The notes under the pieces: generated by a model
The model's database searches: none
Told to the model about the DNA's origin: nothing
Seen by the model: only the letters and a program-made list of their open reading frames with translations
Virus record (IMG/VR): IMGVR_UViG_3300047160_005605
Location: 1-64,000 of that record
Length of the DNA stretch: 64,000 bases
From: a virus
Lineage: Duplodnaviria; Caudoviricetes
Reading direction: 5' to 3' (one strand)
Shown: positions 1,470 through 21,562 of the stretch, piece by piece
Position numbering within the stretch: the first letter of the stretch is position 1
Layout of the letters: each line of letters begins with the position of its first letter
Position numbers and translations under genes: made by a program

Positions 1470-2021
1470 ATGTCACAAGTCAATTTTGCAGACGTTGTAA
1501 ACTGCGGCGCGCTGAGTGACAATGCTATGTCACAAGCGCTCAAGTCGCTCGCGATGCGAAGCGCTGCTCGCAGCACAGCGAGCAAGAGCGACAGCAAGAG
1601 CGACAAGCGCAAGCGCAAGAGCGCCAAGAGCGCGAAAGCGAGCGTCAGCGCCCAGACGTACGTGCAGACGAGAGCACAGCACAGAGAACAGTATTACAGC
1701 AAGCGCAAGATCGCTCATCATGCGAACACTGCTCAATTCAGTGTCAAGCGCCCCGGCGTAATCGCAACGATTATTGACGTGTTGCGAGCAGCGAGCGAGC
1801 AGCGCCCAGTGACGAAAGAGCAAGTGCTCGACAAGCTGTGCAAGCGCTTCACTGAGCGCCCGCGCGAGCACATGAAAGCGACTGTTAGTATGCAAGTCAA
1901 AAGCGGTTTGCGAATCGAAAAGCAGCTTGAGGTCAGCGAAAACGAAAAAGGTTTTTGGCTGACGCAAGAAGCTATCGACAAGAGCAAAGCGAGCGTCAGC
2001 ACAGCACCCAGCACGAACTAA
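1470..2021 (+). CDS. Basic protein with C-terminal winged-helix-like domain (paralog 1 of 3)
   Basis: ATG at 1470 after GAGAGAGCTAGAC; C-terminal GVIATIIDVL...PVTKEQVLDKL...GFWL aligns with 8550-9701 and 18364-18891. Confidence 0.8.
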   Translation: MSQVNFADVVNCGALSDNAMSQALKSLAMRSAARSTASKSDSKSDKRKRKSAKSAKASVSAQTYVQTRAQHREQYYSKRKIAHHANTAQFSVKRPGVIATIIDVLRAASEQRPVTKEQVLDKLCKRFTERPREHMKATVSMQVKSGLRIEKQLEVSENEKGFWLTQEAIDKSKASVSTAPSTN

Positions 2022-2028
2022 GTCGATT

Positions 2029-2100
2029 GAAGCGAGCACAGCACACATGCTGTGCTCGCTTCGCTTGCGCTGTCGCTCTGACAGCGCAAGCGAAGCGAGC
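2029..2100. repeat. Two overlapping, mutually exclusive perfect hairpins (15 bp and 21 bp)
   Basis: 2029-2043/2048-2062 and 2054-2074/2080-2100 share 2054-2062. Confidence 0.85.
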
Positions 2101-2169
2101 AAGCGCCTAGCTGCTCGCGCCCAGCGCCCCAAGCGCTGAGCGACGAGAGGAAAGGTTGCGCTCGCTGTA

Positions 2170-2229
2170 AAGGGTTACGCGCGTAAGGGTTACGCTGCGT
2201 AAGAGGTAAGGTGTCTCAAGCGTAAGAGG
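2170..2229. repeat. Short direct repeats and palindromes at the edge of the GG-free leader
   Basis: AAGGGTTACGC at 2170 and 2185; GCGTAAG(A)GG at 2181, 2197 and 2220; palindromes TTACGCGCGTAA and TTACGCTGCGTAA. Confidence 0.75.
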
Positions 2230-2260
2230 AGCTATCTGCGGAAGTTCCTGAACTCTGCTC

Positions 2261-2464
2261 TTGCAAGAGGCAGCGCAAGCTGCGAACGAAGAGGATCCGA
2301 AGTGCAAGGGAGTCTGCAATGAACGGAGCCCCGAGCGACGTTCCCCGCCGAAGAAGAGAAGAGAATGGGATTGTGAGAGGTGCGGTCGGGGTTGGATTGA
2401 AGTTCCTGCCTGGGTCCGAACCGTCAGCGAAGCGCACGCATCGGCGGAAGAGGACCTGAAGTGA
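2261..2464 (+). CDS. Small hypothetical protein with CxxC motifs
   Basis: CKGVC and CERC motifs; stop codon embedded in repeat element copy 1; TTG start uncertain. Confidence 0.5.
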   Translation: MQEAAQAANEEDPKCKGVCNERSPERRSPPKKRREWDCERCGRGWIEVPAWVRTVSEAHASAEEDLK

Positions 2465-2552
2465 CTCCCTCTACCATGCTCTCGCAAGAGAGCATGGACT
2501 AGGTAGCCATTTCGGTTATCTGTGTCTCAACTCAAGTCAAAGGAGCTAAGTT
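2462..2552 (+). promoter_or_regulatory. Intergenic structured repeat, copy 1 of 7, plus leader box and RBS
   Basis: TGACT-C-CCT-CTA-CC[atgctctc GCAA gagagcat]GG-ACT-AGG-T-AGCCA, then TGTGTCTCAACTCAAGTCAAAGGAGCTA. Confidence 0.8.
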
Positions 2553-2900
2553 ATGAAAGGTACGGTGTTATGCGCCGTCTTGGTTGGCTTGTGCATAGGC
2601 TGCGAACTACCTAAGAGCGAACCAAGCGCTCAAGAGGCTATCGCAGCGGCCAAACTCATGATTGGAAGGGAACTCGCTGCGCTCCACGTTGATTCCATTT
2701 ACTTCCCCGATGATTCCGGGGAATACTGGGTCACATGGCAGAGCGACGAAAAAGGGGTCATGCACGCTATCGTGCGCGGAGTTGCTAACCTGCGCACTTC
2801 GGAAGAGGACCTCAGACTGCAATCGTGGAAGCTGGACCTGACTTACGACAAGGAAAAGCAAGTCTGGCAATCGCACGGTATGAATTGGTCTCGACAATGA
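2553..2900 (+). CDS. Putative lipoprotein
   Basis: Hydrophobic N-terminus ending in lipobox-like LCIGC; AAAGGAG RBS. Confidence 0.7.
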   Translation: MKGTVLCAVLVGLCIGCELPKSEPSAQEAIAAAKLMIGRELAALHVDSIYFPDDSGEYWVTWQSDEKGVMHAIVRGVANLRTSEEDLRLQSWKLDLTYDKEKQVWQSHGMNWSRQ

Positions 2901-2981
2901 CGGTCCCCATTACCGCGCTTGCGAGAGCGAGCGCGGACCTGGTGATCGTTTGGTGTCTCAATTCAAGTCAAAGGAGCTAAC
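2898..2981 (+). promoter_or_regulatory. Intergenic structured repeat, copy 2 of 7
   Basis: ACGGTC-C-CCA-TTA-CC[gcgcttgc GAGA gcgagcgc]GG-ACC-TGG-T-GATCGT, then GTGTCTCAATTCAAGTCAAAGGAGCTA. Confidence 0.85.
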
Positions 2982-3497
2982 ATGGGTAAGAAGATCGTCA
3001 AGAGCATTGCGGAATTGTGTGAGGATAAGGATGCCTACTGCCAAAGCGGTTACATCCGAATGAAGGACCTCATGAACCGATCAGGTCCCATGACCGATGA
3101 GACGTTCATGGATACGCAAGAAGGCGAGAAAGGGTGGCTGGAAAAACTCGGCATCAAAGAGGATGACGTGGTCTTCGTTTCCTTCTACAACGTCGCCGCT
3201 GATGATTACTGTCTCAAGCTGGAAGGGTACGAACTCTTCGCGGAAATGGACGATTATACCGTAATCGTCTATAAGGACGGGAAGCTGATCGGCGGGTACT
3301 ACTGCTCGACAAGAGGTTGCGCCTATCATGCGAATTGCTGGATCGGCAATACTGACCCCGAGCAATTCCTCGGTGCGGTCAGTTGGGATGACGAGAAGGA
3401 AGGAGTCAAAGCGCATACCTGGTTCAAGACCACCAGCGATATCGCAAAGGACCTTGCAATCGACCATCAGAACCGCGTCGTCAACCCCCTGCGATGA
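2982..3497 (+). CDS. Hypothetical early protein
   Basis: 171-aa ORF flanked by repeat elements, strong RBS. Confidence 0.8.
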   Translation: MGKKIVKSIAELCEDKDAYCQSGYIRMKDLMNRSGPMTDETFMDTQEGEKGWLEKLGIKEDDVVFVSFYNVAADDYCLKLEGYELFAEMDDYTVIVYKDGKLIGGYYCSTRGCAYHANCWIGNTDPEQFLGAVSWDDEKEGVKAHTWFKTTSDIAKDLAIDHQNRVVNPLR

Positions 3498-3567
3498 CTC
3501 CCATTACCGCGCTCGTCAGAGCGCGGACCTGGTAGCCATTCCAAACTCAAGTCAAAAAGGAGCTAAG
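3494..3567 (+). promoter_or_regulatory. Intergenic structured repeat, copy 3 of 7
   Basis: ATGACT-C-CCA-TTA-CC[gcgctc gtca gagcgc]GG-ACC-TGG-T-AGCCAT, then CTCAAGTCAAAAAGGAGCTA. Confidence 0.85.
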
Positions 3568-4329
3568 ATGGGAAAGAAGCGCAAGCGTGTTTCCGCTGAA
3601 AGGCGGCTCCGCGAGCGCGATGAGCAGGAATCCAAACCAACTCTGTGTTGGCACGGACCTGATGAGCGTGAGGATGACTTGACTTCGGATCACATTTGGG
3701 AAACTGAGTGTGGATCTTACCGAATCATACGTTCGGTGAGCAAGTTGGGTCAAACGAACCGCTTCATCGCGCTCGTGAAGGAGCAGTATCACAATGGTCC
3801 TAGCTGGGACTTCGTTGACCGCCGCCCCGAAGGGAACTATCCGAGAGAGCATCGCACTTTACCGGATGCTTTTCAGGCAGTGAATATGCACTGTCTGGAA
3901 CGGCGAAAAGTTGTCCCCACTAGCAATGAGGAAGAGGTGTTGGTTAGCGCTGAAAAGCAGAAACTAACACTTCTCCCCTATGCTGTCCCCGCAAGTCGCC
4001 TAATAGCCAGCAATGCATTGCCTTCGCCCTCTCCGCGAGCACCTAGCAAAGCTAGCTCTCCAAAAGCTAGCTCAAGCTCAACGGTGAGGAGAAACGGCGT
4101 GCTGGTATTCGGGCGCTATCCGTTGTCGAGAGTAGGCAACTGGATGGGACTGAAAGGTGGATGGGACCTTGCTCGCGCCAAGCGAGCGCTTGAGAAGGTC
4201 GGTGTAGACCTTGCGAGCGTGAAGGATTCGACGCTCAAGACCGCCTTGACAGACGGAAGGAACCCCAAGTATTCTAAACCGGCTGACTTGATGGATTCGG
4301 AAATCAAGCAGCTGGAAGGAGTGAAGTAA
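3568..4329 (+). CDS. Hypothetical early protein with N-terminal VSAERRL motif
   Basis: ATG 3568 follows AAGGAGCTAAG; the longer ORF in the track runs through the repeat element. Confidence 0.8.
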   Translation: MGKKRKRVSAERRLRERDEQESKPTLCWHGPDEREDDLTSDHIWETECGSYRIIRSVSKLGQTNRFIALVKEQYHNGPSWDFVDRRPEGNYPREHRTLPDAFQAVNMHCLERRKVVPTSNEEEVLVSAEKQKLTLLPYAVPASRLIASNALPSPSPRAPSKASSPKASSSSTVRRNGVLVFGRYPLSRVGNWMGLKGGWDLARAKRALEKVGVDLASVKDSTLKTALTDGRNPKYSKPADLMDSEIKQLEGVK

Positions 4330-4355
4330 GGTGAAACTGTCGAAGAAACACGCGA

Positions 4356-4733
4356 TTGGACCAGATCCTCAAGAACAGCACGTACCTTCCCGAAGCGGGT
4401 TTGGTAGTGCAGCTTCGCAAGGCGCTGGAAAAGCTGGGCGAGGTAGCGCTCGGTCAGCTAAACGTCATCATCATGTGCAAGGAATCGGATGCACGGATGA
4501 CGTTTGTGATGGAAATTGCCAATCGGGAAGTCCCGGAAAGGAAACCGCCCTGGGTGGTGCACTTCCGTCGTAATGATGGAACGGATGAGATTTTTGGTTC
4601 ATTCGAGGACGAAAAGGCAGCCGACGAGTGGACCGAGATGTTTATCGCTCAGTGCGAGAAGGAGGACGGAAAGTTCGATGGCGTCTGCGCTCCTCAAGAG
4701 CTGTCCGACCCGAAGTTTTCCGATCCCGCGTAA
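4356..4733 (+). CDS. Hypothetical early protein
   Basis: 125-aa ORF whose TAA forms the start of repeat copy 4. Confidence 0.7.
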   Translation: MDQILKNSTYLPEAGLVVQLRKALEKLGEVALGQLNVIIMCKESDARMTFVMEIANREVPERKPPWVVHFRRNDGTDEIFGSFEDEKAADEWTEMFIAQCEKEDGKFDGVCAPQELSDPKFSDPA

Positions 4734-4811
4734 CGATCCCCATTACCACCCTCTCGCGTGAGAGGGTGGACCTGGTGACCGTTCTGTGTCTCAAGTGAAA
4801 GGAGCTAGGTT
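4731..4811 (+). promoter_or_regulatory. Intergenic structured repeat, copy 4 of 7
   Basis: AACGATC-C-CCA-TTA-CC[accctctc gcgt gagagggt]GG-ACC-TGG-T-GACCGTT, then TGTGTCTCAAGTGAAAGGAGCTA. Confidence 0.85.
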
Positions 4812-5432
4812 ATGCTGTGGAAAGCCAGCAGTGTGTACGATGCAGGAACCATTTCCTTCGACATGGCCGACACTTTCCAGGCCGCTTGGGAGTATCTTTG
4901 GGATAAAAACCAAAAGCTCCTCAAGAAATGGGACCGCTCGTACTACCACTACGTCTCGGCGACGGATCTGGTGCGGCGCTTCCGCGCTTCGCTGGTCGAG
5001 CGCATTGACAAGCGACCGTATGGGTCGCTCGATTGCGACGGCTACGGTGTGCGCGTGCATCTCAACGGCAAGGGCATGACCCTGCTTGGATGGGCACGCG
5101 ACTGGTTGTATTGTCAGGTCCGAGCAGGGAAGCTCGAGGCGTACAACCCGAAAGGTTCGACCTGCAGCGGTTTGCGCTTCCGACCTGTAGGGGCTTCCTA
5201 CTCGGCAGCGGAGATCGAGCTGCGCAGCCTCAGCAAGGAGGAGAGGTCGCGCCGCTATCGCATTTACCACGCAAAGGACGTGGAAGGCGGTGCTCTGTGT
5301 GGTGTCAAGAACCGAAGCATGGGCGGTCGGCATCCGTTCCGAAAGCGCATCGCTATCGTCGGTGAGGATGGCAAGGTGACGTGCAAGCGCTGTCTCCGCG
5401 CGATGGAGATGCGGAAGTTCCTAAACTCCTGA
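4812..5432 (+). CDS. Hypothetical early protein with C-terminal Cys/His motif (YH...LCG...VTCKRC)
   Basis: 206-aa ORF, strong RBS. Confidence 0.8.
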   Translation: MLWKASSVYDAGTISFDMADTFQAAWEYLWDKNQKLLKKWDRSYYHYVSATDLVRRFRASLVERIDKRPYGSLDCDGYGVRVHLNGKGMTLLGWARDWLYCQVRAGKLEAYNPKGSTCSGLRFRPVGASYSAAEIELRSLSKEERSRRYRIYHAKDVEGGALCGVKNRSMGGRHPFRKRIAIVGEDGKVTCKRCLRAMEMRKFLNS

Positions 5433-5437
5433 GGAAT

Positions 5438-5530
5438 TGACGATCCCCATTACCACCCTCCTGTGAGGAAGGAGGGTGGACCTGGTGACCGTTATGTGTT
5501 TCAAGTTCAAGTCGAAAGGAGCTAGGTACT
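5438..5530 (+). promoter_or_regulatory. Intergenic structured repeat, copy 5 of 7
   Basis: GACGATCCCCATTACC[accctcct gtgagga aggagggt]GGACCTGGTGACCGTT, then TGTGTTTCAAGTTCAAGTCGAAAGGAGCTA. Confidence 0.85.
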
Positions 5531-5845
5531 ATGTACAACATGCGGAAAGCTGTGGATGCAGGGTTGCGCCAGCAGGACCATTTGGATCCGAACTGGTTCA
5601 ACAAGATTTACCGCACCAAGCTGCACATGGGAAGCTGCAAGGACTGTATGCTCGGTCAGCAGTACGGCGACTTTGAGGAAGGAGTCAAAGCGCTCGGACT
5701 GGATGACGAATCGGCGGTGAACTTGGGGTATTCGATTCCGCGCTTCATGATCTACGATGGGTGCGATTTGGTTGACCGGTTCTGGAAAGCGCTGAATCGC
5801 ATGTGGAAGGAAGCGATCATGGATCGGGAATGCTGGACCAGCTGA
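5531..5845 (+). CDS. Hypothetical early protein
   Basis: 104-aa ORF between repeat copies 5 and 6; CxxC (CKDC). Confidence 0.8.
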   Translation: MYNMRKAVDAGLRQQDHLDPNWFNKIYRTKLHMGSCKDCMLGQQYGDFEEGVKALGLDDESAVNLGYSIPRFMIYDGCDLVDRFWKALNRMWKEAIMDRECWTS

Positions 5846-5927
5846 CGATCCCCATTACCGCCCTGGCAACAGGGCGGACCTGGTGACCGTTGGTTACCAT
5901 TCAAGTCAATTGGAAAGGAGCTATGCT
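5843..5927 (+). promoter_or_regulatory. Intergenic structured repeat, copy 6 of 7
   Basis: GACGATCCCCATTACC[gccctg GCAA cagggc]GGACCTGGTGACCGTT, then TCAAGTCAATTGGAAAGGAGCTA. Confidence 0.85.
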
Positions 5928-7052
5928 ATGGTTAAGACAGCAGAAAGGCGATTGTCCAGGGTGGATGTTATCCGGAGCAAGTTCGGACAACTCCGAAAAG
6001 ACCTGAACTACTTCCTGATCGAGAGGCAAATCGAGATTGACTTGGTCCTTGCTGCTATGGTCTGTGCAGAGCATTGCCTGCTAGTAGGCGAGCCGGGAAC
6101 GGCGAAAAGCTTGCTGGTTAGCAATGTGCGCAAGGCTATAGAAGGAGCCAAGAAACCCTTCACCGTGCACTGCTGCAAAGACACTACAAGAGGGGCGGTT
6201 TTCGGACCGACCAAGCTGAGTGCTTTGAAGGATGATCGCACGGATCGGGCACTGGCCGGTGGCGCTGCCGATACGCACTTCCTCATCCTAGAGGAAGTGT
6301 TCAAAGCAGGTCCCGCCGTTCTCGATATGTTCCTCATGCTGATTAACGAGAGGGTGTATGAGGAGGGCTTGGTTTCTGCCGAGGCTCCTCTGCGCTTCTG
6401 TCTCGCGGTCAGCAATGAGTGGAAGCCTGAAGGTTGCGAGGCAGCGCTCGCAGCTTTCTTCGATCGGTTCTTGTTCAGGAAGGAGGTCAAGCGCGTCAGC
6501 ATGAGGTCCTTGGATCGGTTGCTGTTCAGTGATATCCGCTTCGATCCGAAGGACAAGATCACGCTCGAGGAGCTTGATACGGCCACGAAGGTCGTGGAAG
6601 GGTACGAGATGACGAAGGAGGCAAGGGAAAGCTTCCGAACGATCATCGAGAACTTGCACGCGGAAGGTATCTTCCCTGGTGATCGCCGAATGCGCAAGGC
6701 GGTGAAGGCCGCTAAGGCATACGCTTTCATCTGTCAGGACGTGGAAGTGGAGACCAAGCATCTGGATATCCTAGCCCATGTGCTTTGGAATGACCCAGAG
6801 GAGCAACCGAAAAAGGCTGCTCGCATCATCGGAGTCATTGCCAATCCGACGGGGACGAAGATTACCCAGTTGCAGGAGGAGATGGAGGATGTGGTGGCCA
6901 AGAACACTCCTCAGGAGGCCGTTCCGAAGCTGAAGCACATCCAAGCTCAACTCGCCGACCTTCCAATGAATCCCCGCAAGGCGGACGCATTGGAGTATGT
7001 CGCGGACATGATTAAGGACCGCTATGACGCCGTGATAGGAAGGAGGTCGTGA
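5928..7052 (+). CDS. MoxR/RavA-family AAA+ ATPase
   Basis: Walker A GEPGTAKS, Walker B LILEE, SNE sensor, FFDRF arginine finger, DRR lid motif. Confidence 0.9.
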   Translation: MVKTAERRLSRVDVIRSKFGQLRKDLNYFLIERQIEIDLVLAAMVCAEHCLLVGEPGTAKSLLVSNVRKAIEGAKKPFTVHCCKDTTRGAVFGPTKLSALKDDRTDRALAGGAADTHFLILEEVFKAGPAVLDMFLMLINERVYEEGLVSAEAPLRFCLAVSNEWKPEGCEAALAAFFDRFLFRKEVKRVSMRSLDRLLFSDIRFDPKDKITLEELDTATKVVEGYEMTKEARESFRTIIENLHAEGIFPGDRRMRKAVKAAKAYAFICQDVEVETKHLDILAHVLWNDPEEQPKKAARIIGVIANPTGTKITQLQEEMEDVVAKNTPQEAVPKLKHIQAQLADLPMNPRKADALEYVADMIKDRYDAVIGRRS

Positions 7053-8452
7053 TGCCTAGCAAAGAGGAATTGCTGAAAATGTTCAACCTTGACAAGGGGT
7101 TGAGCAAGTCAGCGCCTGCACCGTCAAAGCCTGTCGTGCGCAAGGAAGCGCCGCAGGTCGTCAGGGATAGGGATAACTGCCTTATCCTTGACGAATGGGA
7201 TCAGGATCGCGGGATGGTGATGGCTCGCAAATTGGGCAATCCAGAGAGCGACCATCTATCCCAGTCAGCGCTCGCTGACTTGCATGGAGTGTGCTTCAAA
7301 CCTGATCCACAATTCGCTGAGGGCTGCAAGGACGAGAATCGAGAAAGGTTCATCAAGACCCTTCTTGAGTCCTCGGAATTTGCAGGTCTCAAGGCGAGCA
7401 CCACGCTAGTCGTTACCGCCAGTGAGCGTGCTGCCTACAATCTCGCCGAAGAGCTGGGCAAGGTGTGCGAAGCTGAAAAGCATCGCAAACCGAAACCTGA
7501 CTCCGCAAAGGAGGAGAGAGCGAAGGCAGGAGCGTTCATCCGAGCGGTAGCGAAGGGTGTGGACAAGACCGAAAAGGAGGTCGAAGAGATGGATGGCATC
7601 TGCCATGCGATGGGCATGGGTGAAGGCATGAGAGGTCACAATCTTGCTCCGGAACAACTCGCTGAGTTGTTCAACAAGGTTAGAAATAACCCTGTCGTGA
7701 GAAGGATCTGTGAGCTAGCGGGTCGTTACCGTCTCAGCGCTCAGAGCAAGCAGAGGAACAAGGTCGTTCACGGTTACGATGATATGGTGGGTCTGTGTCT
7801 GGACGATACGCTCGGTCTCCTGCTCCCAGAAGAGTTAATGCTTTTGGGAGAGGATGACGAGCTAGGTCTGGACGCGGCGCGCCGTCTCATGGAACGGGAA
7901 ACACTCGCCTTCGACTATCGCAGCATCGAGAAGGTAGCGAAAGGTTCCATTCTCATCACAACCGATGAGAGTGGTTCGATGCACGGCGAGCCTAATGCCA
8001 ACGCAAAAGCCTTCGCATTGGCGATGGCATGGATCGCACGCAAGCAGAATCGCTGGTGTGGTTTAGTTGGCTACAGTGGAGGCGATCCCGGTTTGCTGCT
8101 GACGCTACCTCCCCACAAGTGGGATGAGCTAGCCGTTCTTGAATGGATGGCTCACTTCTACGGTCGGGGGAGCGATCGTGACGTTCCGGTAGTCGAATTG
8201 CCAGACTTCTACCGGCAGATGAAAGCGCCGAAAGGCAAGACGGATCTGGTGATGATTACCGACGCGATCTGTCATCTGGATGCTGGCGAGATTGCAAGGT
8301 TCAACGATTGGAGAAAGGAGGAGAAGGTTCACTCAATCGCTCTTATCATCGGCAGGGAAGCGGGTGATCTGAAGCAGGTATGTGATGAGGTCTACTACCA
8401 AGCGCAGCTTGGAGTAGAGAACGAAGGTGTGGAAAAGTGTCTCTCTATTTGA
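7049..8452 (+). CDS. von Willebrand factor A domain protein (ViaA-like partner of MoxR)
   Basis: MIDAS DESGSM, distal ITDA; directly follows the MoxR ATPase. Confidence 0.85.
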   Translation: MMPSKEELLKMFNLDKGLSKSAPAPSKPVVRKEAPQVVRDRDNCLILDEWDQDRGMVMARKLGNPESDHLSQSALADLHGVCFKPDPQFAEGCKDENRERFIKTLLESSEFAGLKASTTLVVTASERAAYNLAEELGKVCEAEKHRKPKPDSAKEERAKAGAFIRAVAKGVDKTEKEVEEMDGICHAMGMGEGMRGHNLAPEQLAELFNKVRNNPVVRRICELAGRYRLSAQSKQRNKVVHGYDDMVGLCLDDTLGLLLPEELMLLGEDDELGLDAARRLMERETLAFDYRSIEKVAKGSILITTDESGSMHGEPNANAKAFALAMAWIARKQNRWCGLVGYSGGDPGLLLTLPPHKWDELAVLEWMAHFYGRGSDRDVPVVELPDFYRQMKAPKGKTDLVMITDAICHLDAGEIARFNDWRKEEKVHSIALIIGREAGDLKQVCDEVYYQAQLGVENEGVEKCLSI

Positions 8453-8461
8453 AAGGGAGGC

Positions 8462-8549
8462 TGACGATCCCCATTACCGGGCCTGTCGTGCCGCAGGCCC
8501 GGACCTGGTGACCGTTTGTCTATTGTGTCTCAACGAAAGGAGCTATGTT
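8462..8549 (+). promoter_or_regulatory. Intergenic structured repeat, copy 7 of 7
   Basis: GACGATCCCCATTACC[gggcctg tcgtgccg caggccc]GGACCTGGTGACCGTT, then TGTGTCTCAACGAAAGGAGCTA. Confidence 0.85.
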
Positions 8550-9701
8550 ATGACCGCCTCTATTCAGACCAACGAGAAGGGCTCGAGGAAAGGTCGGCGA
8601 GCCGCCGCCATCAAGGAGTTGTCGGAAGGCAAGTCGCGCTTCCTCGGAGAGTTAGTCATACTCTCCACGGGGACGGGTAAAAAGCACAAGCTGAAGGAGA
8701 TTATCTCCGCGCTTGAGTCCTGCGACCTCAACAAAGAGGTTGCCAAGGAGCTTTCCCCGCGGGCTGCCTTCACCCGTGCCGCACGCGAACTGGCAGACGA
8801 GAGGGTTATCGACATCCTTCGGGATGAAACGGACCACATCACCTTCCAGTTCACGGCGAAGGCGATGAAGGACTCCGAGTGGAAGTATTCCAAAGAGACC
8901 AACGTCGTTCTGGACAAGATCAGCGGCAAGGTGCGCTGCCCCTCTTCAAATATCGAAGAATTGGCGCAGAAGGCACTGGACCGCGCTCTTGAGGAGCGGG
9001 GCACGTCGGATATCACCGAGATGGTGAAGCGTTTGTTCAGCGAGAACGGTGATATCATCTCGGCTCGGGATGAGGGTGGAGTGTACTTTGTGCCGGAGCC
9101 CTATCGGGCATTCTCCGACAAGGTGCAGGACTTCCTCAAGCTGCTCGGACGGCGTATCAATCGCTGGCCAATCCCGGCTGGTGAGGATCGCGCGGACGAG
9201 TCCGTGCAGGACGTGTGCACTTCCTACATCCAGAGGCTGTGCGAGCAGCTGGACGTTGCCATCAGCGGGTTCGGTACGAGCACCCGGGCGACGACCATCG
9301 AAGCGACTGCCGCTCATATCAATGAGTTGATGGTAAAGGTTGAGGCCTTTGCCAGCTACTTCGGCGATATGAAGGAGAGCAGTCTGGCGTTGGTCGCTTC
9401 CAAGCAGAGGATGCTGGCAGAGCAGGTCGATAAGATCGCCGACCTGAAAGCGTCAGCACCTCCGGGCACGAACGGGAGCGGCAAGAAGGTGGGTATCATC
9501 GCCGCAATCATCGAGGTACTGGAAAGCGCCAGTGCCAAGAAGCCGGTGACGCGCGATGAGATCCATGCCAAGTTGGTCGAGAAGTTCCCCGAGCGCGACC
9601 CGAAGGGTATGCGCAATACCGTCATGTCTCAGGTTCCCGGTTGCCTTCTCAAGGAGAAGGGCATCACCGTGAACCGCAATGATCGTGGTTACTGGCTGTA
9701 A
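8550..9701 (+). CDS. DUF6744-like protein fused to C-terminal winged-helix-like domain (paralog 2 of 3)
   Basis: N-terminal LGELV...SPRAAFTRA resembles DUF6744 from memory; C-terminal GIIAAIIEVL...PVTRDEI...GYWL. Confidence 0.65.
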   Translation: MTASIQTNEKGSRKGRRAAAIKELSEGKSRFLGELVILSTGTGKKHKLKEIISALESCDLNKEVAKELSPRAAFTRAARELADERVIDILRDETDHITFQFTAKAMKDSEWKYSKETNVVLDKISGKVRCPSSNIEELAQKALDRALEERGTSDITEMVKRLFSENGDIISARDEGGVYFVPEPYRAFSDKVQDFLKLLGRRINRWPIPAGEDRADESVQDVCTSYIQRLCEQLDVAISGFGTSTRATTIEATAAHINELMVKVEAFASYFGDMKESSLALVASKQRMLAEQVDKIADLKASAPPGTNGSGKKVGIIAAIIEVLESASAKKPVTRDEIHAKLVEKFPERDPKGMRNTVMSQVPGCLLKEKGITVNRNDRGYWL

Positions 9702-9759
9702 AAGGATTGCACTCCGGCCAAGGAAGGCCTTCTCTTGTCTCAAGTGAAAGGAGCTAACT

Positions 9760-9867: not shown

Positions 9868-9868
9868 C

Positions 9869-10469: not shown

Positions 10470-10510
10470 ATTGGTTTCGTTAGCTTGCTAAGCTATGTTA
10501 GAAAGGAGCT

Positions 10511-11452: not shown

Positions 11453-11530
11453 GGAAAGGAGTTAGTGTGAGACCGACGAATGACGTGGCGTTACCCAGTG
11501 TCCTTGTCGATGATGTAAGGAGGACTGCTC

Positions 11531-11695
11531 ATGACCCCGCGTGAATGGGAGACTTTCTTCGCACTGCTGGAGAAGATCGTCAACGCTCCCGAAGGCACCT
11601 ATAAAGAGAAGGCTGCTTCCGTGATGCTTCAAGCCAAGAATCAAGGCTCGGAAACGGAACTCAATGAGTTCGCTTCTTGGTTCCAGGAGGGCTAA
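11531..11695 (+). CDS. Small hypothetical protein (54 aa)
   Basis: AAGGAGG RBS; TAATG coupling. Confidence 0.6.
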   Translation: MTPREWETFFALLEKIVNAPEGTYKEKAASVMLQAKNQGSETELNEFASWFQEG

Positions 11696-11889
11696 TGGAC
11701 GAACTACTCAAGCAAGTGGAGCGAGTCTGGAAAGCCCTCCTCGAGTATGGGCCGCTTGACGATGGCACTCCTCAAGGAAAGGAGCTAGAAGATGCCATCA
11801 TCGATCTGAGGAAGGCTTCTATCCCTTTCAAATTGCGAAGGAGTAAGCGTGTTAAGAAACGCCATAACCGAAACCTACGGAGAGGTTGA
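11695..11889 (+). CDS. Small hypothetical protein
   Basis: AGGAGG RBS; basic C-terminal tail. Confidence 0.55.
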   Translation: MDELLKQVERVWKALLEYGPLDDGTPQGKELEDAIIDLRKASIPFKLRRSKRVKKRHNRNLRRG

Positions 11890-12343
11890 TAAGCTCTTGC
11901 ACTTCACGGTGCACAAGTTTATCCGTAAGTATGGCGGGGATTATGATACGCTGAGAGCCGATGCCAACTGGCATTTTCTCTCAGCGTATCTATCCTTCAA
12001 GCCATCGAAGTCAAAGTTTTCCACTTGGGTGAGCTATAGAGTCCACATGGGACTGTTGGCGAGCAAGCGCGACGATAAGAAGCGCGCCCACTATCTCAAG
12101 CCGCTACCAACTAAGCTGTACGCTCGCACGGAGAGCACTGCAAGGCAGCTTGCGCGGGACTTGTCAGATGATGCCGGCGCGATCATACGCTTGGTGTTGA
12201 ATATTATCCCTGCCAGCTTCTTTCGACGGCGGCATAACAAGCGCCAAGCGCTAGTTGAATACCTAACTGGCTTGGGTTGGTCTGAGGCTAAGATCGAGCG
12301 TAGCTTCGCCGAGCTAAGAGAGGAGCTATGTACTCAAACCTAA
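11849..12343 (+). CDS. Sigma-70 region 2-like (ECF-type) phage sigma factor
   Basis: LLHFTVHKF...DYDTLRADA...FKPSKSKFSTWV resembles region 2; helical HTH-like C-terminus. Confidence 0.6.
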   Translation: MLRNAITETYGEVDKLLHFTVHKFIRKYGGDYDTLRADANWHFLSAYLSFKPSKSKFSTWVSYRVHMGLLASKRDDKKRAHYLKPLPTKLYARTESTARQLARDLSDDAGAIIRLVLNIIPASFFRRRHNKRQALVEYLTGLGWSEAKIERSFAELREELCTQT

Positions 12344-13767
12344 TGCGCAGAGCGAGAGGTCTTGGCAATGGTGTCATGCAGTTGGTGAGGTGGACCGATC
12401 CTATCACCAACAAGACTATTACCAAGCCGCATGAGTTTCAAGCATGGGCAGTCCGCAAGCTGCACAGGTGGGGCGGGCGGGGATTGCTTGCCGATGACAT
12501 GGGTTTGGGCAAGACGGTCGAAGCGCTTATCTATGCCCATGAGGTTCCAAAAGCAAGACCCGCTCTAGTTATTTGCCCTGCCTTTCTCAAGTTCAATTGG
12601 GAGCGCGAAGCAGCACGCCATGTAGGTATGCGAGCGGAGATACTCGACGGGACGAGAGTGCCGAGGAGAGGGATACTCCCCCCAGCACCTTTGTCTATTA
12701 TCAACTACGAAATACTAGGACCATGGATGGAATGGCTGATGGCGATGAAATTCAAGCTTATCATCCTAGACGAGTGCCAGTACGTCAAGAGCCGCAAAGC
12801 TAAGAGGACTAGGTATTGCCGACAGCTTTGCTGGAATGCGCCAAGGGTAATCGCTCTGAGTGGTACGCCGCTCACCAACCGACCCGAAGAGTTGTGGTCG
12901 ATCCTGAATATGATACGGCCAGACCTCTACTCAGAGTTTATGCCGTTCGCGTTCAAATACTGCAAGCCGCAGCATTCGCCGCATGGATGGTTGTTTCCGG
13001 GCGCTGACAACCTTGACCACTTGCATCACAAGCTGAAAAAGCAGCTTATGATACGCCGGAAGAAAAGCGCCGTCATGCCTTTCTTGCCGAAGAAAGTGCA
13101 CTCGGTCATACCTGTCAAGATCACCAACCTCAAAGAGTATGTCCATGCCAAAGAGGACTTCTTGGGTTGGCTGTACTCTGTGAGTCCCGAGCGTGCACGT
13201 ACGGCAGCTAGAGCCGAAGGGCTAGCGCGCTTGGGATACTTGCTCAGGCTCATTGGAGAAGGCAAGCGTCAAGCTGTCTCCAAGTGGATTGAGGACTTCT
13301 TAGGCGCAACCGACGATAAGCTCTTAGTCTTTGGTCGGCATGTTAGCGTAGTCACTGGCCTCCACAATGATTTTCCCAAAGAATCTGTGGTCATCTATGG
13401 CGCTGTCTCTAAGAGTGAGCGTAACAAGCGCGAGCATGAGTTCCAGAACAACCCCAAGATAAGAGTCCTCATAGGCAACATACAAGCTGCTGGCGTAGGT
13501 CTAAACCTCACAGCCGCAAGCTATGTAGGCTTCGCTGAGTATCCCTGGACTCCGGCCGAGCTTAACCAAGCGATAGACAGAACGCACCGAATAGGCCAGA
13601 CCAAGCAAGTTAGCGTTTACTATCTTACTGCCATCAACACCATAGAAGAAAGGATGGTGAAGCTGCTACAAAAGAAGCAAGGGATCTTGAGTTCCATTCT
13701 CGACGGGAGAAGGGATCGTTCCGATGTTAGTGTGTATGACCAACTCATAAAGGAGATGCGAAAGTGA
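12328..13767 (+). CDS. SNF2/SWI2-family helicase (HARP-like)
   Basis: LADDMGLGKT, ILDECQ, LSGTP, AAGVGLNLT, QAIDRTHRIGQ. Confidence 0.95.
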   Translation: MYSNLMRRARGLGNGVMQLVRWTDPITNKTITKPHEFQAWAVRKLHRWGGRGLLADDMGLGKTVEALIYAHEVPKARPALVICPAFLKFNWEREAARHVGMRAEILDGTRVPRRGILPPAPLSIINYEILGPWMEWLMAMKFKLIILDECQYVKSRKAKRTRYCRQLCWNAPRVIALSGTPLTNRPEELWSILNMIRPDLYSEFMPFAFKYCKPQHSPHGWLFPGADNLDHLHHKLKKQLMIRRKKSAVMPFLPKKVHSVIPVKITNLKEYVHAKEDFLGWLYSVSPERARTAARAEGLARLGYLLRLIGEGKRQAVSKWIEDFLGATDDKLLVFGRHVSVVTGLHNDFPKESVVIYGAVSKSERNKREHEFQNNPKIRVLIGNIQAAGVGLNLTAASYVGFAEYPWTPAELNQAIDRTHRIGQTKQVSVYYLTAINTIEERMVKLLQKKQGILSSILDGRRDRSDVSVYDQLIKEMRK

Positions 13768-13985
13768 TTAACCACAAGAAGTCTTTCCCAGTGAAAGGCA
13801 AGAAGAAAGGAGAAGGCATCCTGTTCATCAGGAACCTCCCAGAAGAGGACCACCGCCTGTTCAAGGCGTGGTGTGTGCGACGCGGCTGGACGATGACGGC
13901 AGCGATCCGTCACTTCATCCGCGAGTGTGTTCGTGGTTCCGAGCAAACCCACAACCCAGGAAAGGGAAAGCGAAATGACGTGTAA
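13764..13985 (+). CDS. Ribbon-helix-helix (Arc-like) DNA-binding protein
   Basis: LFIRNLPEEDHRLFKAWCVRRGWTMTAAIRHFI. Confidence 0.7.
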   Translation: MINHKKSFPVKGKKKGEGILFIRNLPEEDHRLFKAWCVRRGWTMTAAIRHFIRECVRGSEQTHNPGKGKRNDV

Positions 13986-14226
13986 GGAATTCCGGAAGGT
14001 AGTCGATGGCAGCTTCCTCGAGACCACAAGAGCCGAGCGCTGCGCCATCGTCGAGCACCGAAAGGTGTGCAGGACTTGCGATGAATATCTCACTAATATT
14101 AGTCTGGAAAGCATCAAGGGATTGAAGGAGAGGCTTCCTTCGCCCCTCTATGAGTTGGCGGTGCTAGCCCTATGGGGCGCTGCCAGTACGATCCGCAAGC
14201 AAGACGTGGAGGACCCCGAGACATGA
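13975..14226 (+). CDS. zf-HC2/ZAS anti-sigma-like zinc-finger protein
   Basis: MTCKEF...VEHRKVCRTC (C-x(n)-HxxxCxxC). Confidence 0.6.
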   Translation: MTCKEFRKVVDGSFLETTRAERCAIVEHRKVCRTCDEYLTNISLESIKGLKERLPSPLYELAVLALWGAASTIRKQDVEDPET

Positions 14227-15098
14227 CCTTTGCAGAGATTCTCGACCATTATGGTGTGCACTACGAAACCGAGGGCAAGCACACCCGGCGAGGCTGGGTA
14301 CAACTCGATTGCCCTTGGTGCAGCGGCGAGCTTTACTTGGGTTACAACATCGCCGGCAATTATTGCAATTGCTGGCGCTGTGGTAGCCACAGCACGCTGG
14401 ACGTGCTAGTATCAGTGACCCGAGCGAACTACCCCGCAGTGATCGGGCTTTACAAGCAATTAGACAGAGCAGACTATGAGAAGCCTCACACCGTAGTCTG
14501 CGGCAAGCTGCTAGTGCCTCAAGCTTCATTCCTGGAGAAAGCGCATGTCAAGTATCTCCATGAAGTGCGCGGCTTTCGGCATAGCGAGATTAACGAATTG
14601 GTTAAGTTATGGAAGATCAGAGGCATTGGTCCCTTCGCTCCGAAGCTGACTTGGCGCATTTTAATCCCCATAGAGTATAGGAGCGAAGTGGTCAGCTGGA
14701 CCACGCGCAGCATCGGCGAGTTTACGAGCGTGCGCTATGTGTCGGCGTCTCCTTCCGAAGAGAGGATGCACCACAAGCACTTGCTCTATGGTGAGGACTA
14801 TGCCAGAGCGTCTATCATCGTCTGCGAAGGCCCTATAGACGTGTGGAAGATCGGGCCCGGCGCTGTTGCTACGCTTGGCGTAGGCTATACGGGGGAGCAG
14901 CTTTTGCGCATGAGCCGCTACCCTCACCGTGCGATCTGGTTCGACAATGAGCCTGACGCTCGCCAGCGCGCTCGACGGCTTAGAGATGATTTAACTGCAT
15001 TCCCTGGGACAACCTATGTCATCATGAGCGATGCGAAGGATGCGGGATCCGCCAAACGCTCAGAGATAGCAGAGGTCAGAAGGAGATTCTTGTTATGA
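14223..15098 (+). CDS. DNA primase (zinc finger plus TOPRIM)
   Basis: CPWC...CWRC zinc finger; VCEGPID, ATLG, FDNE TOPRIM motifs. Confidence 0.9.
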   Translation: MTFAEILDHYGVHYETEGKHTRRGWVQLDCPWCSGELYLGYNIAGNYCNCWRCGSHSTLDVLVSVTRANYPAVIGLYKQLDRADYEKPHTVVCGKLLVPQASFLEKAHVKYLHEVRGFRHSEINELVKLWKIRGIGPFAPKLTWRILIPIEYRSEVVSWTTRSIGEFTSVRYVSASPSEERMHHKHLLYGEDYARASIIVCEGPIDVWKIGPGAVATLGVGYTGEQLLRMSRYPHRAIWFDNEPDARQRARRLRDDLTAFPGTTYVIMSDAKDAGSAKRSEIAEVRRRFLL

Positions 15099-15382
15099 CA
15101 GAAACGGCGTGGCGATGGCATATTATGGACCTAGAGATTGGCAGTGAAGAGACTTTTCGCTGCCAAGGGTGGGAGTTGCGAGTGAAGCGAGTTCGCCAGG
15201 AGCTACATACGCTTTGGTTGAGCCGGCCTAATATCCTCCGAACACGGTATTTCACGCATCGCGCAAACCTCCTGAATTTCGGTAGAAAAATGTTTTTCAA
15301 AGAATTTGTAGCGTTGAACCAAAGTTCGCGCAATAATAAAGTGAGAGACAAAGCACGGCAATATTGGGAGATACCAACATGA
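15095..15382 (+). CDS. Hypothetical protein
   Basis: ATGA overlap with the primase stop. Confidence 0.6.
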   Translation: MTETAWRWHIMDLEIGSEETFRCQGWELRVKRVRQELHTLWLSRPNILRTRYFTHRANLLNFGRKMFFKEFVALNQSSRNNKVRDKARQYWEIPT

Positions 15383-15420
15383 ATGCAGGCAAGCTGCTCA
15401 GCAGACGGACGAGCTGGCGA

Positions 15421-15954
15421 GCCTGCGCCTCCCAATTTGGGGTAGGATGTATAGGAGAGCCGAACGGGATTCGGTTGCCGCAGGCGGCAGACAACTCTCT
15501 GAAGGAGGTCCGAAGATCGTCCCTGCTGACTCATGTTCCCGGCATGTGCATTTCGACTGCACTGCGTGGCGGTGACCTCACCGCTGACAATGGGGCTGGG
15601 GGATACGAAGTATCCCCGAGCACTGGGCATTCTGAGCTGGGTCGCCAAGCCCATTGTACCGGCCGCACTCCGGGCAAGCACCACAACGTCCGTGATGGGG
15701 TGAACCAGATACCAACGCAACTGGAGGGTCATACAAGCGGCTCCTCCGAGCGTGCGCTAGCTCCGCTATCTGGGTGCCGCAAGCACTTATGCGGGGGGCC
15801 TGGACTTCTCGTCACAAGGGCAGGGACTATCACTCTAAAGGTTGCCATTCGACACATCAACACTGCCTTGTCACCACGATGTACTACTACCCTATGGATG
15901 GTCCTGGGTAGCAAGTACATCTACCGTGCTCGATGAGTATTGCTAGCGCAATAC
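15421..15954 (+). ncRNA. Candidate large structured non-coding RNA (or structured origin); strand inferred from flanking genes
   Basis: More than 10 nested helices identified by eye, including an 8-bp pairing 15519-15526/15820-15827; overlapping ORFs on both strands have atypical composition. Confidence 0.45.
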
Positions 15955-16072
15955 CCATCTCACAGTAAGTGGTGGTTAAGGAGAAGCCGGAGGCTGCAGG
16001 AAGTTCCTAGATGATCCTTTTGTCTCATTTTCGGGAGGAAACCATGGGCAAGGCAGAACAAACTCTCCAGGC

Positions 16073-16603
16073 ATGGAGGCATCTTATATGACCCCGTTTA
16101 TGCCGTGGCAGGAACTGCGTCAGGACAAGTCCAAGCGTAAGCTTGATCCGCAGGTCAAGGATGTGCTCGATAGCGTCTTGCAGCTTGACTGGCCCGCGGG
16201 CAGCGACCAGCAAGTGTTGCCTGTGCTCACTAAGAGCTTGCGAGCGTACAAGAGCTTTCGGGAGCAATTCGCAGCGATGGACAAGCGCTTGCGCGAGCGA
16301 GCGCTGGCACTCCGGGCAGAAGCGAAGCAAGCAGATTTGCCAGAACGCAAGACCAAAGAGTTGCACTTGCTCTATCGGCACATACGCCTGATCGAGCACC
16401 TCCGCAACTACTTTGCACCAAGCCATATGTTTATGAAAATCTGGATGACGCACGTACAGAGAGAAGCCAAGTACAGGGGAAATAACTTACGCAAGCTTGC
16501 CTTCTCTACAAAGTCGCCACTTTTCACAAAGCTAGGGCGACAATGGACTTACGAGTATTGCCATCAGTCTTATTGGTTTGACCAACTTCTCGAAGAACTT
16601 TAG
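16073..16603 (+). CDS. Hypothetical protein
   Basis: 176-aa ORF in the replication cluster. Confidence 0.7.
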   Translation: MEASYMTPFMPWQELRQDKSKRKLDPQVKDVLDSVLQLDWPAGSDQQVLPVLTKSLRAYKSFREQFAAMDKRLRERALALRAEAKQADLPERKTKELHLLYRHIRLIEHLRNYFAPSHMFMKIWMTHVQREAKYRGNNLRKLAFSTKSPLFTKLGRQWTYEYCHQSYWFDQLLEEL

Positions 16604-16611
16604 GAGGGGCT

Positions 16612-16887
16612 ATGACCTGTAATGAGTTTCAGATTACCTTTGGGCAGGTTCATCCCCTGCAAGCAACATCCCCAATGATCCTTGCGATGGCCATTCACAT
16701 GAAGGAATGCCCATCGTGCAAGAAATGGATGCGTCAGGGAGAGGATCCAGACGAAAAACAGCATCCACTTATGACGTTTGCCTTGCAGAGAAAGGCCCGC
16801 ATGGCATTGAACGATTGCCAGACTGATCCCGAATTGCGCCAGCAGATGGAGGCATACGATGCGCTCAAGCGTAAGGAACGAAAGTAA
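16612..16887 (+). CDS. Second zf-HC2/ZAS anti-sigma-like protein
   Basis: MTCNEF...IHMKECPSC; AGGAGG RBS. Confidence 0.6.
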   Translation: MTCNEFQITFGQVHPLQATSPMILAMAIHMKECPSCKKWMRQGEDPDEKQHPLMTFALQRKARMALNDCQTDPELRQQMEAYDALKRKERK

Positions 16888-18256
16888 GACGGAGAGGCGA
16901 GTCCTCACCGGCATGATTACGGATAAAGATGTCCTTGCGCGCATCGCTCCGAAGTGGGACAAGGACCTCTTTCGGTCGAAGTTCTCGAACATCGTCGGTG
17001 GCTGGTGCGTATCTTACTTCAACAAATATGGCAAAGCGCCCGAGAGACACATAGAAGGGTTGTTTGAGACTTGGGCGACAGCGAGCAAGGACAAAGCCAC
17101 AGTCGAGACCATAGATGAGTTTTTAAGTGGTTTGTCCGATGAGTATGCGAGTCTCCGCAAAGCCAAGAACAGCGAGTATGTCCTAGACCTAGCTTCTACA
17201 CACTTCAACGAAGTGAAGGCGTCTAGGCACGCCGAGCAAGTGCAGGGCTTTGTAGACAGTGGCAACCTTGACCAAGCGAAGAAAGCCATCAATACCTATA
17301 GCGATATCCAAATCGCATCGGGAGATGGCATAGACGTTCTCACGGACCATGCCGCTATCCAAAAGGCGTTTGAGGACAAGAAGGAGCCGCTAATCTCCTA
17401 TCCCGGTGCTCTTGGCAGCTTCTTCGGTGATGTATTAGAACGCGATGGACTGGTTGCCTTCATGGGTCCTGAGAAGCGAGGTAAGACGTGGATGCTCATA
17501 GACGTAGCTTGGGTGGGAATGCTGCAACGTCGTAAGGTTGCCTTCTTTGAGGTTGGTGATATGAGCCAGAGTCAAATCCTGCGGCGCTTTATGACCAGAG
17601 CGAGCAAGCGACCACTTACCGCGAGAAGTGTACTCTATCCACGCTCGTTGACGCACGACCTAGACGAGCCATTCGCTGAGGTGGTCCAAGAAGAGAGGGA
17701 GTTCACTAAGCCGTTGCACTGGAAGACGGCCTGGAAAGCTTGCCAGAAGATCCTGAAGGTGGACCTACGGAGCAAGCATTCTTACCTCAAGCTGTTTTGC
17801 TATCCTAACTCTTCTATTAACATCTTAGGTATTAGAGATGTGCTGCACCAATTAGAAAGGCTAGACTGGACTCCTGATATAGTGGTGCTCGACTACCCGG
17901 ACATACTCGCACCTTATCCGGGCTACATGGAGAGCAGAGACCAGATCAATGCGACGTGGAAAGCCATGCGGGCTATAAGTCAATCCTACCACTGCCTCTT
18001 CGTCACGGCGACGCAGAGCGACGCAGCATCCTATGAAGTGATGACACTACACCGAAAGCACTTCGCCGATGATAAGAGAAAGTACGCGCAAGTTACCGAT
18101 ATGATTGGCTTGTCGCAGACCGAAGATGAGAAGAAGCGGGGTATCTTACGTCTCAATCATCTGGCTTTGCGCGAAGGAGCCTATAGCGAGAGCCATTGCG
18201 TGCACGTCGCGGGTTGCTTGGCGATAGCGAATCCCTGCATACTTAGCACGTTCTAG
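16859..18256 (+). CDS. Replicative DNA helicase (DnaB-like)
   Basis: Walker A GPEKRGKT, Walker B VVLDY, TATQS, LALREG. Confidence 0.85.
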   Translation: MRSSVRNESKTERRVLTGMITDKDVLARIAPKWDKDLFRSKFSNIVGGWCVSYFNKYGKAPERHIEGLFETWATASKDKATVETIDEFLSGLSDEYASLRKAKNSEYVLDLASTHFNEVKASRHAEQVQGFVDSGNLDQAKKAINTYSDIQIASGDGIDVLTDHAAIQKAFEDKKEPLISYPGALGSFFGDVLERDGLVAFMGPEKRGKTWMLIDVAWVGMLQRRKVAFFEVGDMSQSQILRRFMTRASKRPLTARSVLYPRSLTHDLDEPFAEVVQEEREFTKPLHWKTAWKACQKILKVDLRSKHSYLKLFCYPNSSINILGIRDVLHQLERLDWTPDIVVLDYPDILAPYPGYMESRDQINATWKAMRAISQSYHCLFVTATQSDAASYEVMTLHRKHFADDKRKYAQVTDMIGLSQTEDEKKRGILRLNHLALREGAYSESHCVHVAGCLAIANPCILSTF

Positions 18257-18289
18257 GCAGGAATGACAAGGAGTTTAATCCAGGCATAC

Positions 18290-18319
18290 TTGACATGCCG
18301 CATGCCGCAATACTAAGAT
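18290..18319 (+). promoter_or_regulatory. Sigma70-like promoter
   Basis: TTGACA (18290-18295), 18-bp spacer, TAAGAT (18314-18319) in an intergenic gap. Confidence 0.55.
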
Positions 18320-18363
18320 AGTAGAACAAAGCGAGTCACACAACCTTGAAAGGAGGTTCGTTC

Positions 18364-18891
18364 GTGAAGATCAGGCAAGTCGCTCTAGTGTCGTTGTTCC
18401 AAGAGTTAGGTTTCGCCAACGCCGAGAGTTGGGAAGTCTCGAAGCTCCAGAGCCGAGCCCAGAAAATCCAATCTCTGCTCGATGACGAAACGGGTCCCAA
18501 GACTGCCAAAGGCCGCAAGCTCTGTGAGGAGCTGGTCAAGGCCGTCGAAGCTGAGGAGGAAATCGAAGTTATGGCAAGTGCTGCGTCTACCAAAACCGCC
18601 CCCGCGAAGGGGAGTAAGAAAGGCTCGAAAAAGGCCCCGAAGGCCGCCGCGAAGCCTAGCAGCAACGGGCCGCGCAAGGTCGGTGTCATTGACACCATCA
18701 TTGAATGCCTCAAGAAGGGCAGTGCCAAGAGCCCTGTCACGAAAGAGGACATCCTCAAGGCTCTCGTCAAGAAGTTCCCCGACCGCCGGCCGGAGGCAAT
18801 GAAGAACACGGTCTCCGCCCAGGTGCCCACGCATCTCCGTATCGAGAAGAACATTACGGTCAAGAGCAACGACAACGGCTACTGGCTGTAA
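18364..18891 (+). CDS. Lys/Ala-rich histone-like protein with C-terminal winged-helix-like domain (paralog 3 of 3)
   Basis: AGGAGG RBS; KGSKKGSKKAPKAAAK linker; GVIDTIIECL...PVTKEDIL...GYWL. Confidence 0.8.
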   Translation: MKIRQVALVSLFQELGFANAESWEVSKLQSRAQKIQSLLDDETGPKTAKGRKLCEELVKAVEAEEEIEVMASAASTKTAPAKGSKKGSKKAPKAAAKPSSNGPRKVGVIDTIIECLKKGSAKSPVTKEDILKALVKKFPDRRPEAMKNTVSAQVPTHLRIEKNITVKSNDNGYWL

Positions 18892-18918
18892 TCGCCCTTT
18901 CCACGCTGCCACAGCGCT

Positions 18919-21560: not shown

Positions 21561-21562
21561 CA

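Follow-up and report, generated by a model that had tools for sequence, protein, structure and literature searches.

The window analysed here, a 64,000-nucleotide stretch of viral DNA (Duplodnaviria; Caudoviricetes; positions 1 to 64,000 of IMG/VR record IMGVR_UViG_3300047160_005605), covers the early/replication arm of a phage, probably a planctomycete phage, and some of its late arm. Three of its open reading frames (ORFs), at 1470-2021, 8550-9701 and 18364-18891, each free of stops over that span, end in a common C-terminal domain of 72 aa. The third lies directly ahead of a gene cluster for 7-deazaguanine synthesis. The three proteins are organized as follows.

1470..2021, plus strand: P0001, 183 aa; Ser/Ala/Lys-rich low-complexity N-terminal part, winged-helix domain at 1746-1961 and a 19-aa tail
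8550..9701, plus strand: P0002, 383 aa; DUF6744-like N-terminal part (sub-threshold) and C-terminal winged-helix domain at 9483-9698; third gene of a RavA-like/ViaA-like module
18364..18891, plus strand: P0003, 175 aa; N-domain, linker at 18571-18672 and winged-helix domain at 18673-18888

The domain limits come from the alignment of the three copies, which are gap-free internally, have pairwise identities of 43-57% and share 25 invariant columns. A shared domain of about 70 aa on these ORFs had been described in a sequence-only reading of the same DNA, and its consensus motif agrees with our alignment. In the six-frame translation of the phage record, an IMG/VR contig of 72 kb and about 89% completeness, the domain was located in exactly three places (E 6e-46, 1e-22 and 4e-18), and a hidden Markov model (HMM) of 196 sequences run against all six-frame ORFs of the window recovered the same three only (E 3e-35 to 5e-32; next E 1.5). 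As for the gene starts, all three proteins are present at the same lengths in a public protein library. In the domain tree the three copies are not mutual nearest neighbours, and the DUF6744-type copies are non-monophyletic with a support of 0.46; this tree of 72 residues is poorly resolved and was used only to judge that the copies do not appear to be recent duplicates. No match was found among GenBank phage records, either by megablast of 20 kb or by tblastn of P0003.

The N-terminal parts of the proteins proved unrelated when compared with one another, as had been proposed, and the labels given to them fared unevenly. The low-complexity description of P0001 is correct. The DUF6744-like label of P0002 has only sub-threshold backing: the protein scores 21.4 bits (E 1.3e-4) against PF20529, whose gathering threshold is 27 bits, and its homologue P0126 reaches 19.7 bits, with profile positions 39-300 of 314 aligned, while the homologues P0041 and P0100 gave no DUF6744 match. 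From these alignments, a distant relationship of the P0002 N-terminal part to DUF6744 is plausible. P0003 had been called histone-like, and matches no histone family; the resemblance lies only in the composition of the Lys/Ala/Pro-rich stretch of its linker, which follows a short acidic patch of about 8 residues. Its N-domain (residues 3-69, about 18370-18570) is a conserved helical unit of about 67 aa, for which the ESM Atlas returned no usable match, and a single-sequence AlphaFold2 model of the full-length protein was unusable (pLDDT 48).

One copy had also been assigned to a GG-free leader. GG/CC dinucleotides are about tenfold depleted in positions 1-1750 (23 seen against 242 expected from base composition), and this leader encloses the N-terminal half of P0001. 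The ratio of seen to expected is 0.38 in the winged-helix part of the same gene, a partial depletion, and about 0.9 from 2149 onward.

Fold and sequence family of the domain

AlphaFold2, run on the domain with an alignment of 65 homologues (pLDDT 95, pTM 0.81), predicted helix H1 at residues 5-15, a strand at 22, H2 at 24-34, H3 at 40-59 and hairpin strands at 64-65 and 70-71. A three-helix core, a strand between H1 and H2 and a C-terminal hairpin wing define the winged helix, and the modelled domain is a canonical winged helix. The sequence-only reading had staked itself on such a winged helix-turn-helix (wHTH) fold, with structure prediction and Foldseek as the check, and both returned it. 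In the Foldseek search against the PDB, forkhead domains were the best matches (probability about 0.9, E 0.04). Two VIA-align searches gave top-50 lists in which nearly all chains were winged-helix proteins, with Z of 5.7-7.8 and 54-68 of the 72 residues aligned. These included a Retron-Eco1 chain (Z 7.8), the PafBC winged helix (7.5), PerR (7.4), E2F-DP (7.2), BirA (7.0) and the globular domains of histones H5/H1 (6.4-7.4, over 66-68 residues). At the head of the lists (Z 7.0-7.8), 58-68 residues are aligned. Since every Z is below 8, no winged-helix subfamily stands out. The sub-threshold Pfam matches of the domain, Cac1_C, DsrD and DEK_C, are also winged-helix families. A PDB sequence search with the domain profile gave one chance-level match only (E 1.4), and the BFVD viral fold search gave generic winged-helix matches only (E>=0.09).

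Linker histones H1/H5, forkhead proteins and E2F-DP share the topology H1-b1-H2-H3-b2-b3 with the domain, which superposes on them over its whole 72 residues (1hst_A, Z 7.4 over 67 residues with a root mean square deviation of 2.8; 7kbf_K, Z 7.0; 1cf7_B, Z 7.2; forkhead structures, Z 6.0-6.5). On the other hand, identity to these structures is 9-15%, and numerous winged helices of bacterial repressors reach a Z just as high. Neither PF00538 nor any other Pfam model gives a family match to the domain, and the likeness to linker histones is one of fold only. P0003 also resembles histone H1 in having a Lys/Ala/Pro-rich stretch beside the domain, but this basic stretch is N-terminal to the domain, and the protein is that of a phage.

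The domain had further been compared to the HARE-HTH and RNA polymerase (RNAP) delta type, a family that also comprises ASXL and restriction-enzyme fusions; this assignment was not supported, although the wHTH fold itself was. PF05066 (gathering threshold 25.9 bits, which no copy reaches) left all three proteins unmatched at E<=1 and all of 65 family members unmatched at E<=0.01, and it found nothing in the six-frame translation of the phage record at E<=10, while the Bacillus subtilis and Lactococcus lactis controls scored. As a reference, 15 bona fide HARE-HTH domains from archaeal genomes, all above the Pfam cut-off, were aligned to the domain with hhalign, which gave a probability of 11.8% with the three-copy alignment and 7.2% with the 196 sequences, at scores of 18.6-19.7 against 13.9 for a reversed control. 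An HMM built from the same 15 domains exceeded 5 bits for 72 of the 196 family domains, against 19-21 in reversed controls. By ESM Atlas features, the similarity to Planctomycetota HARE-HTH clusters is 0.80-0.81, which is under the level where chance matches are rare. HARE-HTH domains have an extra helix within the HTH (PMC11037411), whereas the predicted model has three helices only, with a 5-residue turn, FPDRR, between H2 and H3. Given the silence of PF05066, the low hhalign probability and the lack of this helix in the model, the domain is not filed under HARE-HTH. Both are small, portable winged-helix-type modules found in DNA-modification contexts, and the hhalign alignment is in register from H1 to H3 (…kP.T..EI… and T..AQ(I/V)); a distant kinship within the winged-helix superfamily is possible. 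In RNAP delta (RpoE) the winged helix is N-terminal and the polyanionic tail C-terminal, unlike the arrangement here, in which the domain is C-terminal and a charged linker precedes it.

A HMMER search of 1.84 billion representative proteins retrieved 1364 clusters at E<=1e-3 and 620 at E<=1e-10, mostly from phages and mobile elements linked to Planctomycetota. No model of Pfam, NCBIfam or the annotated PHROGs covers the domain, and the members inspected are unnamed or called 'hypothetical'; the fold is known, and the sequence family is new to these three collections. A word-indexed homologue search with the domain region found its own cluster only, and a search with the domain alignment A3 found 64 unnamed hypothetical proteins, with no Pfam domains, and one kinase fusion.

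Architectures were counted on the first 154 matches of the HMMER pass. In 130 of them no more than 15 residues follow the domain; 96 carry a P0003-type N-domain and four a DUF6744-like part. The linkers of the P0003-type relatives often contain Asp/Glu tracts (tens to more than 100 residues) and Lys/Ala/Pro tracts. Many members are proteins of about 100-120 aa with a basic tail and the domain only. Two such forms of about 110 aa (L034:10001-10330 and L035:10001-10342) are found in planctomycete DNA, one in Rhodopirellula (WP_286764260) and the other in a 7.8-Mb contig; both have a small serine resolvase gene directly downstream, in a conserved block that closes with a large serine recombinase and looks like an integrative element. 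Two fusions join the domain to Ser/Thr protein kinases (P0004, at L030:602-2392, and P0158), one of them with two domain copies. One of these fusions shares its element with an XRE-type HTH gene and a Prim-Pol/D5-type primase-helicase, and sub-threshold matches to the defence kinases MADS6 and BREX PglW were recorded. No nuclease fusion was seen among the matches inspected.

Across the 196 domain sequences, G4 is conserved in 100%, T46 in 99%, F35 and Q50 in 98%, P21 in 97% and R38 in 96%. The net charge has a median of +6 and is positive in 98%. T46 and Q50 are located on helix 3. Polar helix-3 residues that are nearly invariant across such varied contexts suggest that the domain would recognize one common feature of its ligand and not many different operators.

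Association with 7-deazaguanine genes

Around P0003, the window contains the following features.

16859..18256, plus strand: DnaB-like replicative helicase; conserved neighbour of P0003-type genes on their upstream side
18290..18319, plus strand: sigma-70-like promoter match TTGACA-18-TAAGAT ahead of P0003; consensus match only
18892..19003, plus strand: P0003-queD intergenic region, -44 kcal/mol, z -3.46; terminator- or attenuator-like
19004..22264, plus strand: queD, queE, queC, folE and queF (preQ1 synthesis), assigned by Pfam
22298..23341, plus strand: DpdA-like DNA transglycosylase (phrog_887, queuine tRNA-ribosyltransferase, E 1e-44)

As had been stated, one copy sits immediately before the que cluster, P0003 ending 113 nt ahead of queD. 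PTPS/QueD, radical-SAM QueE, QueC, GTP cyclohydrolase I and QueF each exceed their own Pfam cut-off, and a sliding clamp gene (23322-24344) is found downstream of the DpdA-like gene. The longest ORF of queF (21440-22264, 274 aa) shares about 120 nt with folE, and its match to the QueF domain is confined to residues 188-267; the real start is probably further downstream, because the QueF proteins of relatives have 140-155 aa. Phage 7-deazaguanine clusters described so far consist of FolE, QueD, QueE, QueC, QueF/Gat-QueC and DpdA (Hutinet 2019, PMC6884629; 2023, PMC10516641). The window has the full preQ1 set plus the DpdA-like gene, so FolE, QueD, QueE, QueC and a DpdA-type transglycosylase, the combination by which such clusters are recognized, occur together in it, and the P0003-type gene is found within or at the edge of clusters of this kind. 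A term search of the two papers on these clusters (PMC6884629, PMC10516641) found no winged-helix or DNA-binding accessory protein. In the bacterial deazaguanine system the helper DpdB is an ATPase (PMC10164549) and not a winged-helix protein.

Loci were fetched in two ways, by the domain and by QueC, and the domain and marker genes were mapped in all of them. Of the 42 distinct domain copies in these loci, 33 share their locus with a que gene; the distance to it is at most 1.5 kb for 31 copies and at most 300 nt for 20. In the QueC-anchored viral loci the domain occurs in 12 of 80, always within 1.5 kb of a que gene. The gene orders found are given below, where wH denotes the winged-helix gene.

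DnaB-[wH]-queD-queE-queC-folE: as in the window
queD-queE-[wH]-queC-folE: for example L015-L017, L058, L062 and L081
[wH]-queC-queD-queE-folE: L086
[wH]-queD-queE-folE-queC: L127
wH 7 kb upstream of the que cluster: L057, a temperate phage with integrase, ERF and SSB

Two tandem domain copies precede queD in L018, L036 and L102. The locus L058:5299-9896 belongs to a more distant phage with a PolIII-alpha polymerase, in which the order queD-queE-[wH]-Hydrolase_2-queC-folE is followed by Vut_1 (YhhQ-type queuosine-precursor transporter). A pattern scan of genome contigs returned one locus, in a contig of a 'Pacearchaeota' metagenome-assembled genome, whose que genes, DpdA-like gene and clamp resemble the phage loci. 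These comparisons of gene content and order provide good evidence, with clear limits, that the P0003-type protein is tied to the 7-deazaguanine genes by guilt-by-association.

The signals that flank P0003 could suggest another role, in which P0003 would regulate the middle (replication/que) operon as an ordinary sequence-specific transcription factor, the two remaining copies being regulators with extra domains. The promoter-like site is accompanied by a strong Shine-Dalgarno sequence (AAGGAGG, 7 nt ahead of the GTG start). The P0003-queD intergenic region folds into a terminator-like structure, with a 9-bp outer stem and then CCUUUUUGG; a stem plus U-run closes the region. In addition, many structural neighbours of the domain are repressors (PerR/Fur, BirA, NiaR, MecI and PadR). 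Even so, we consider a transcription factor of this kind quite unlikely. Operator-specific regulators do not usually keep their recognition-helix residues almost unchanged over phages and elements as different as these, the long acidic and Lys/Ala/Pro-rich linkers and the kinase or DUF6744-like fusions are atypical of simple repressors, and the basic-tail-only forms have no evident dimerisation element. The Rfam scan of the whole window gave no family, and no preQ1 riboswitch ahead of queD.

Possible roles of the domain

The reading that we favour, and regard as moderately probable, is that this unannotated canonical winged-helix family is a portable DNA anchor, and that proteins of the P0003 type belong to the 7-deazaguanine block as accessory, non-enzymatic members. 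The domain, which is basic, would most likely bind double-stranded DNA via its helix 3, where Thr46 and Gln50 are nearly invariant, and in planctomycete phages and mobile elements it could serve as a C-terminal anchor for varied N-terminal parts. P0001 would then be an early, low-complexity basic protein tethered to DNA, and P0002 the tethered third component of a RavA/ViaA-like AAA+/vWA module. In P0003, a small helical domain and a charged linker would be held on the DNA, where the protein may act as a helper in or around the modification step. It might recruit DpdA or the replisome to the DNA through its N-domain; alternatively, it might be a DNA-binding protein able to work on deazaguanine DNA, independently of the guanine N7. 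7-Deazaguanines might block DNA-binding proteins that need this position (Hutinet et al. 2019, PMC6884629), which would give the phage a reason to encode a binder of its own.

Several observations weigh against this proposal. The domain is absent from 68 of the 80 QueC-anchored viral loci, so the 7-deazaguanine pathway does not need it. The replication backbone (SNF2, DnaB, DpdA and clamp) is largely common to most of the linked loci; the independent arrangements are therefore perhaps four or five, and much of the adjacency may be inherited synteny. In L055:8493-13755 and L009:4157-9282 an SNF2-DnaB-wH-clamp backbone keeps the winged-helix gene, and the fetched region up to the clamp holds no que/dpdA block; the modification cassette is thus apparently gained and lost as a unit while the winged-helix gene stays. 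No que genes occur within 10 kb in the kinase fusion locus L030 or in the planctomycete islands L034 and L035. In the window, neither P0001 nor P0002 is adjacent to que genes, P0002 belonging to the separate RavA-like/ViaA-like trio. Finally, winged helices can bind proteins or RNA, and cullin WHB, RAP74 and ScpB are among the structural matches.

The sequence-only reading had gone further and seen in the domain a reader of DNA state, which would recognize 7-deazaguanine (dPreQ1/dPreQ0) DNA or its absence and so steer its partners to phage and not to host DNA. It is favoured by the close association that one protein type keeps with que genes while their order varies, by the three paralogues in one phage with the full preQ1/DpdA pathway and by the fusions to Ser/Thr kinases that resemble, below threshold, MADS6 and BREX PglW. 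The invariant polar residues of the recognition helix, kept over hundreds of clusters, would suit one common DNA feature. There is also a precedent, since the winged helices of DpnI and related enzymes are sensors of DNA modification (PMC11037411), which read a base modification in the duplex without base flipping and are reused in many fusions. Those sensors differ from the present domain in that they sense N6-methyladenine and are fused to nucleases. A reader nevertheless seems doubtful to us. The domain occurs in planctomycete islands and in the Prim-Pol element, none of which has que genes within 10 kb, the que-less relatives L055 and L009 carry it as well, and the HARE-HTH link that inspired the idea was not confirmed. 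For the invariant Thr and Gln, contacts to A/T or to the backbone would be more usual than contacts to guanine, which also counts against it. A broader form, with a rather low probability in our judgement, would make the domain a dedicated binder of deazaguanine-substituted DNA, which either reads the modification or ignores the loss of N7, and which would steer several machines to the modified phage genome, namely an early protein, the RavA/ViaA-like AAA+/vWA module and a helper of the DpdA pathway; the kinase fusions would then let host elements sense such DNA.

A further alternative takes the adjacency to que genes as incidental order of early/middle genes. The winged helix would be an anchor to any DNA, within a protein that coats DNA or takes over the host in the manner of SPO1 Gp44, RNAP delta or a linker histone. 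The likeness of the fold to linker-histone globular domains over 66-68 residues, the Lys/Ala/Pro-rich stretch ahead of the P0003 domain and the retention of the gene in L055 and L009 agree with it. In Gp44, an inhibitor of RNAP, a DNA-binding motif is combined with an acidic mimic of DNA (PMC8208478); the protein shares with P0003 a layout of small folded parts, a strongly charged flexible linker and one DNA-anchoring part, and the very long Asp/Glu tracts of the P0003 relatives extend the parallel. This likeness is one of layout, Gp44 is not linked to que genes, and the acidic tract of P0003 itself, of about 8 residues, is very short. Moreover, in many loci the gene lies inside the cluster, between queE and queC, a position that incidental order leaves unexplained, and no linker-histone or delta family model matches. 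We therefore consider this alternative very unlikely, and equally improbable the mode of action that it implies, in which the charged linker, as an acidic DNA mimic or a basic tail, would displace or trap host DNA-binding proteins or compact the DNA.

Phage 7-deazaguanine DNA modification has been described so far as a set of enzymes (FolE, QueD, QueE, QueC, QueF or relatives, and DpdA). If the accessory role that we favour for P0003 is correct, the system would have an unrecognised component, a conserved DNA-binding partner without enzymatic activity whose gene stays with the que genes as these are rearranged, and the question is raised of how DNA-binding proteins operate on DNA whose guanines lack N7. 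If the domain were instead a dedicated binder of deazaguanine DNA, a reader or adaptor domain for this modification of DNA would be described for the first time. Because the same domain is present on each of the three proteins of one phage, a binding result for one copy would inform all of them. To define the domain, which occurs in more than 1300 clusters, would by itself give an annotation to many proteins that are now only hypothetical in planctomycete phages and mobile elements.

The RavA-like/ViaA-like trio

The gene of P0002 closes a conserved trio (5883-9701), whose first two genes are listed below.

5883..7052, plus strand: MoxR-class AAA+ ATPase (bpMoxR/AAA_5, RavA-like), first gene of the trio
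7049..8452, plus strand: second gene of the trio; partner of 467 aa, ViaA-like (vWA) by a sub-threshold match

The same trio, with a ViaA-like protein of about 470 aa, recurs in the related phage contigs L029, L032 and L033.

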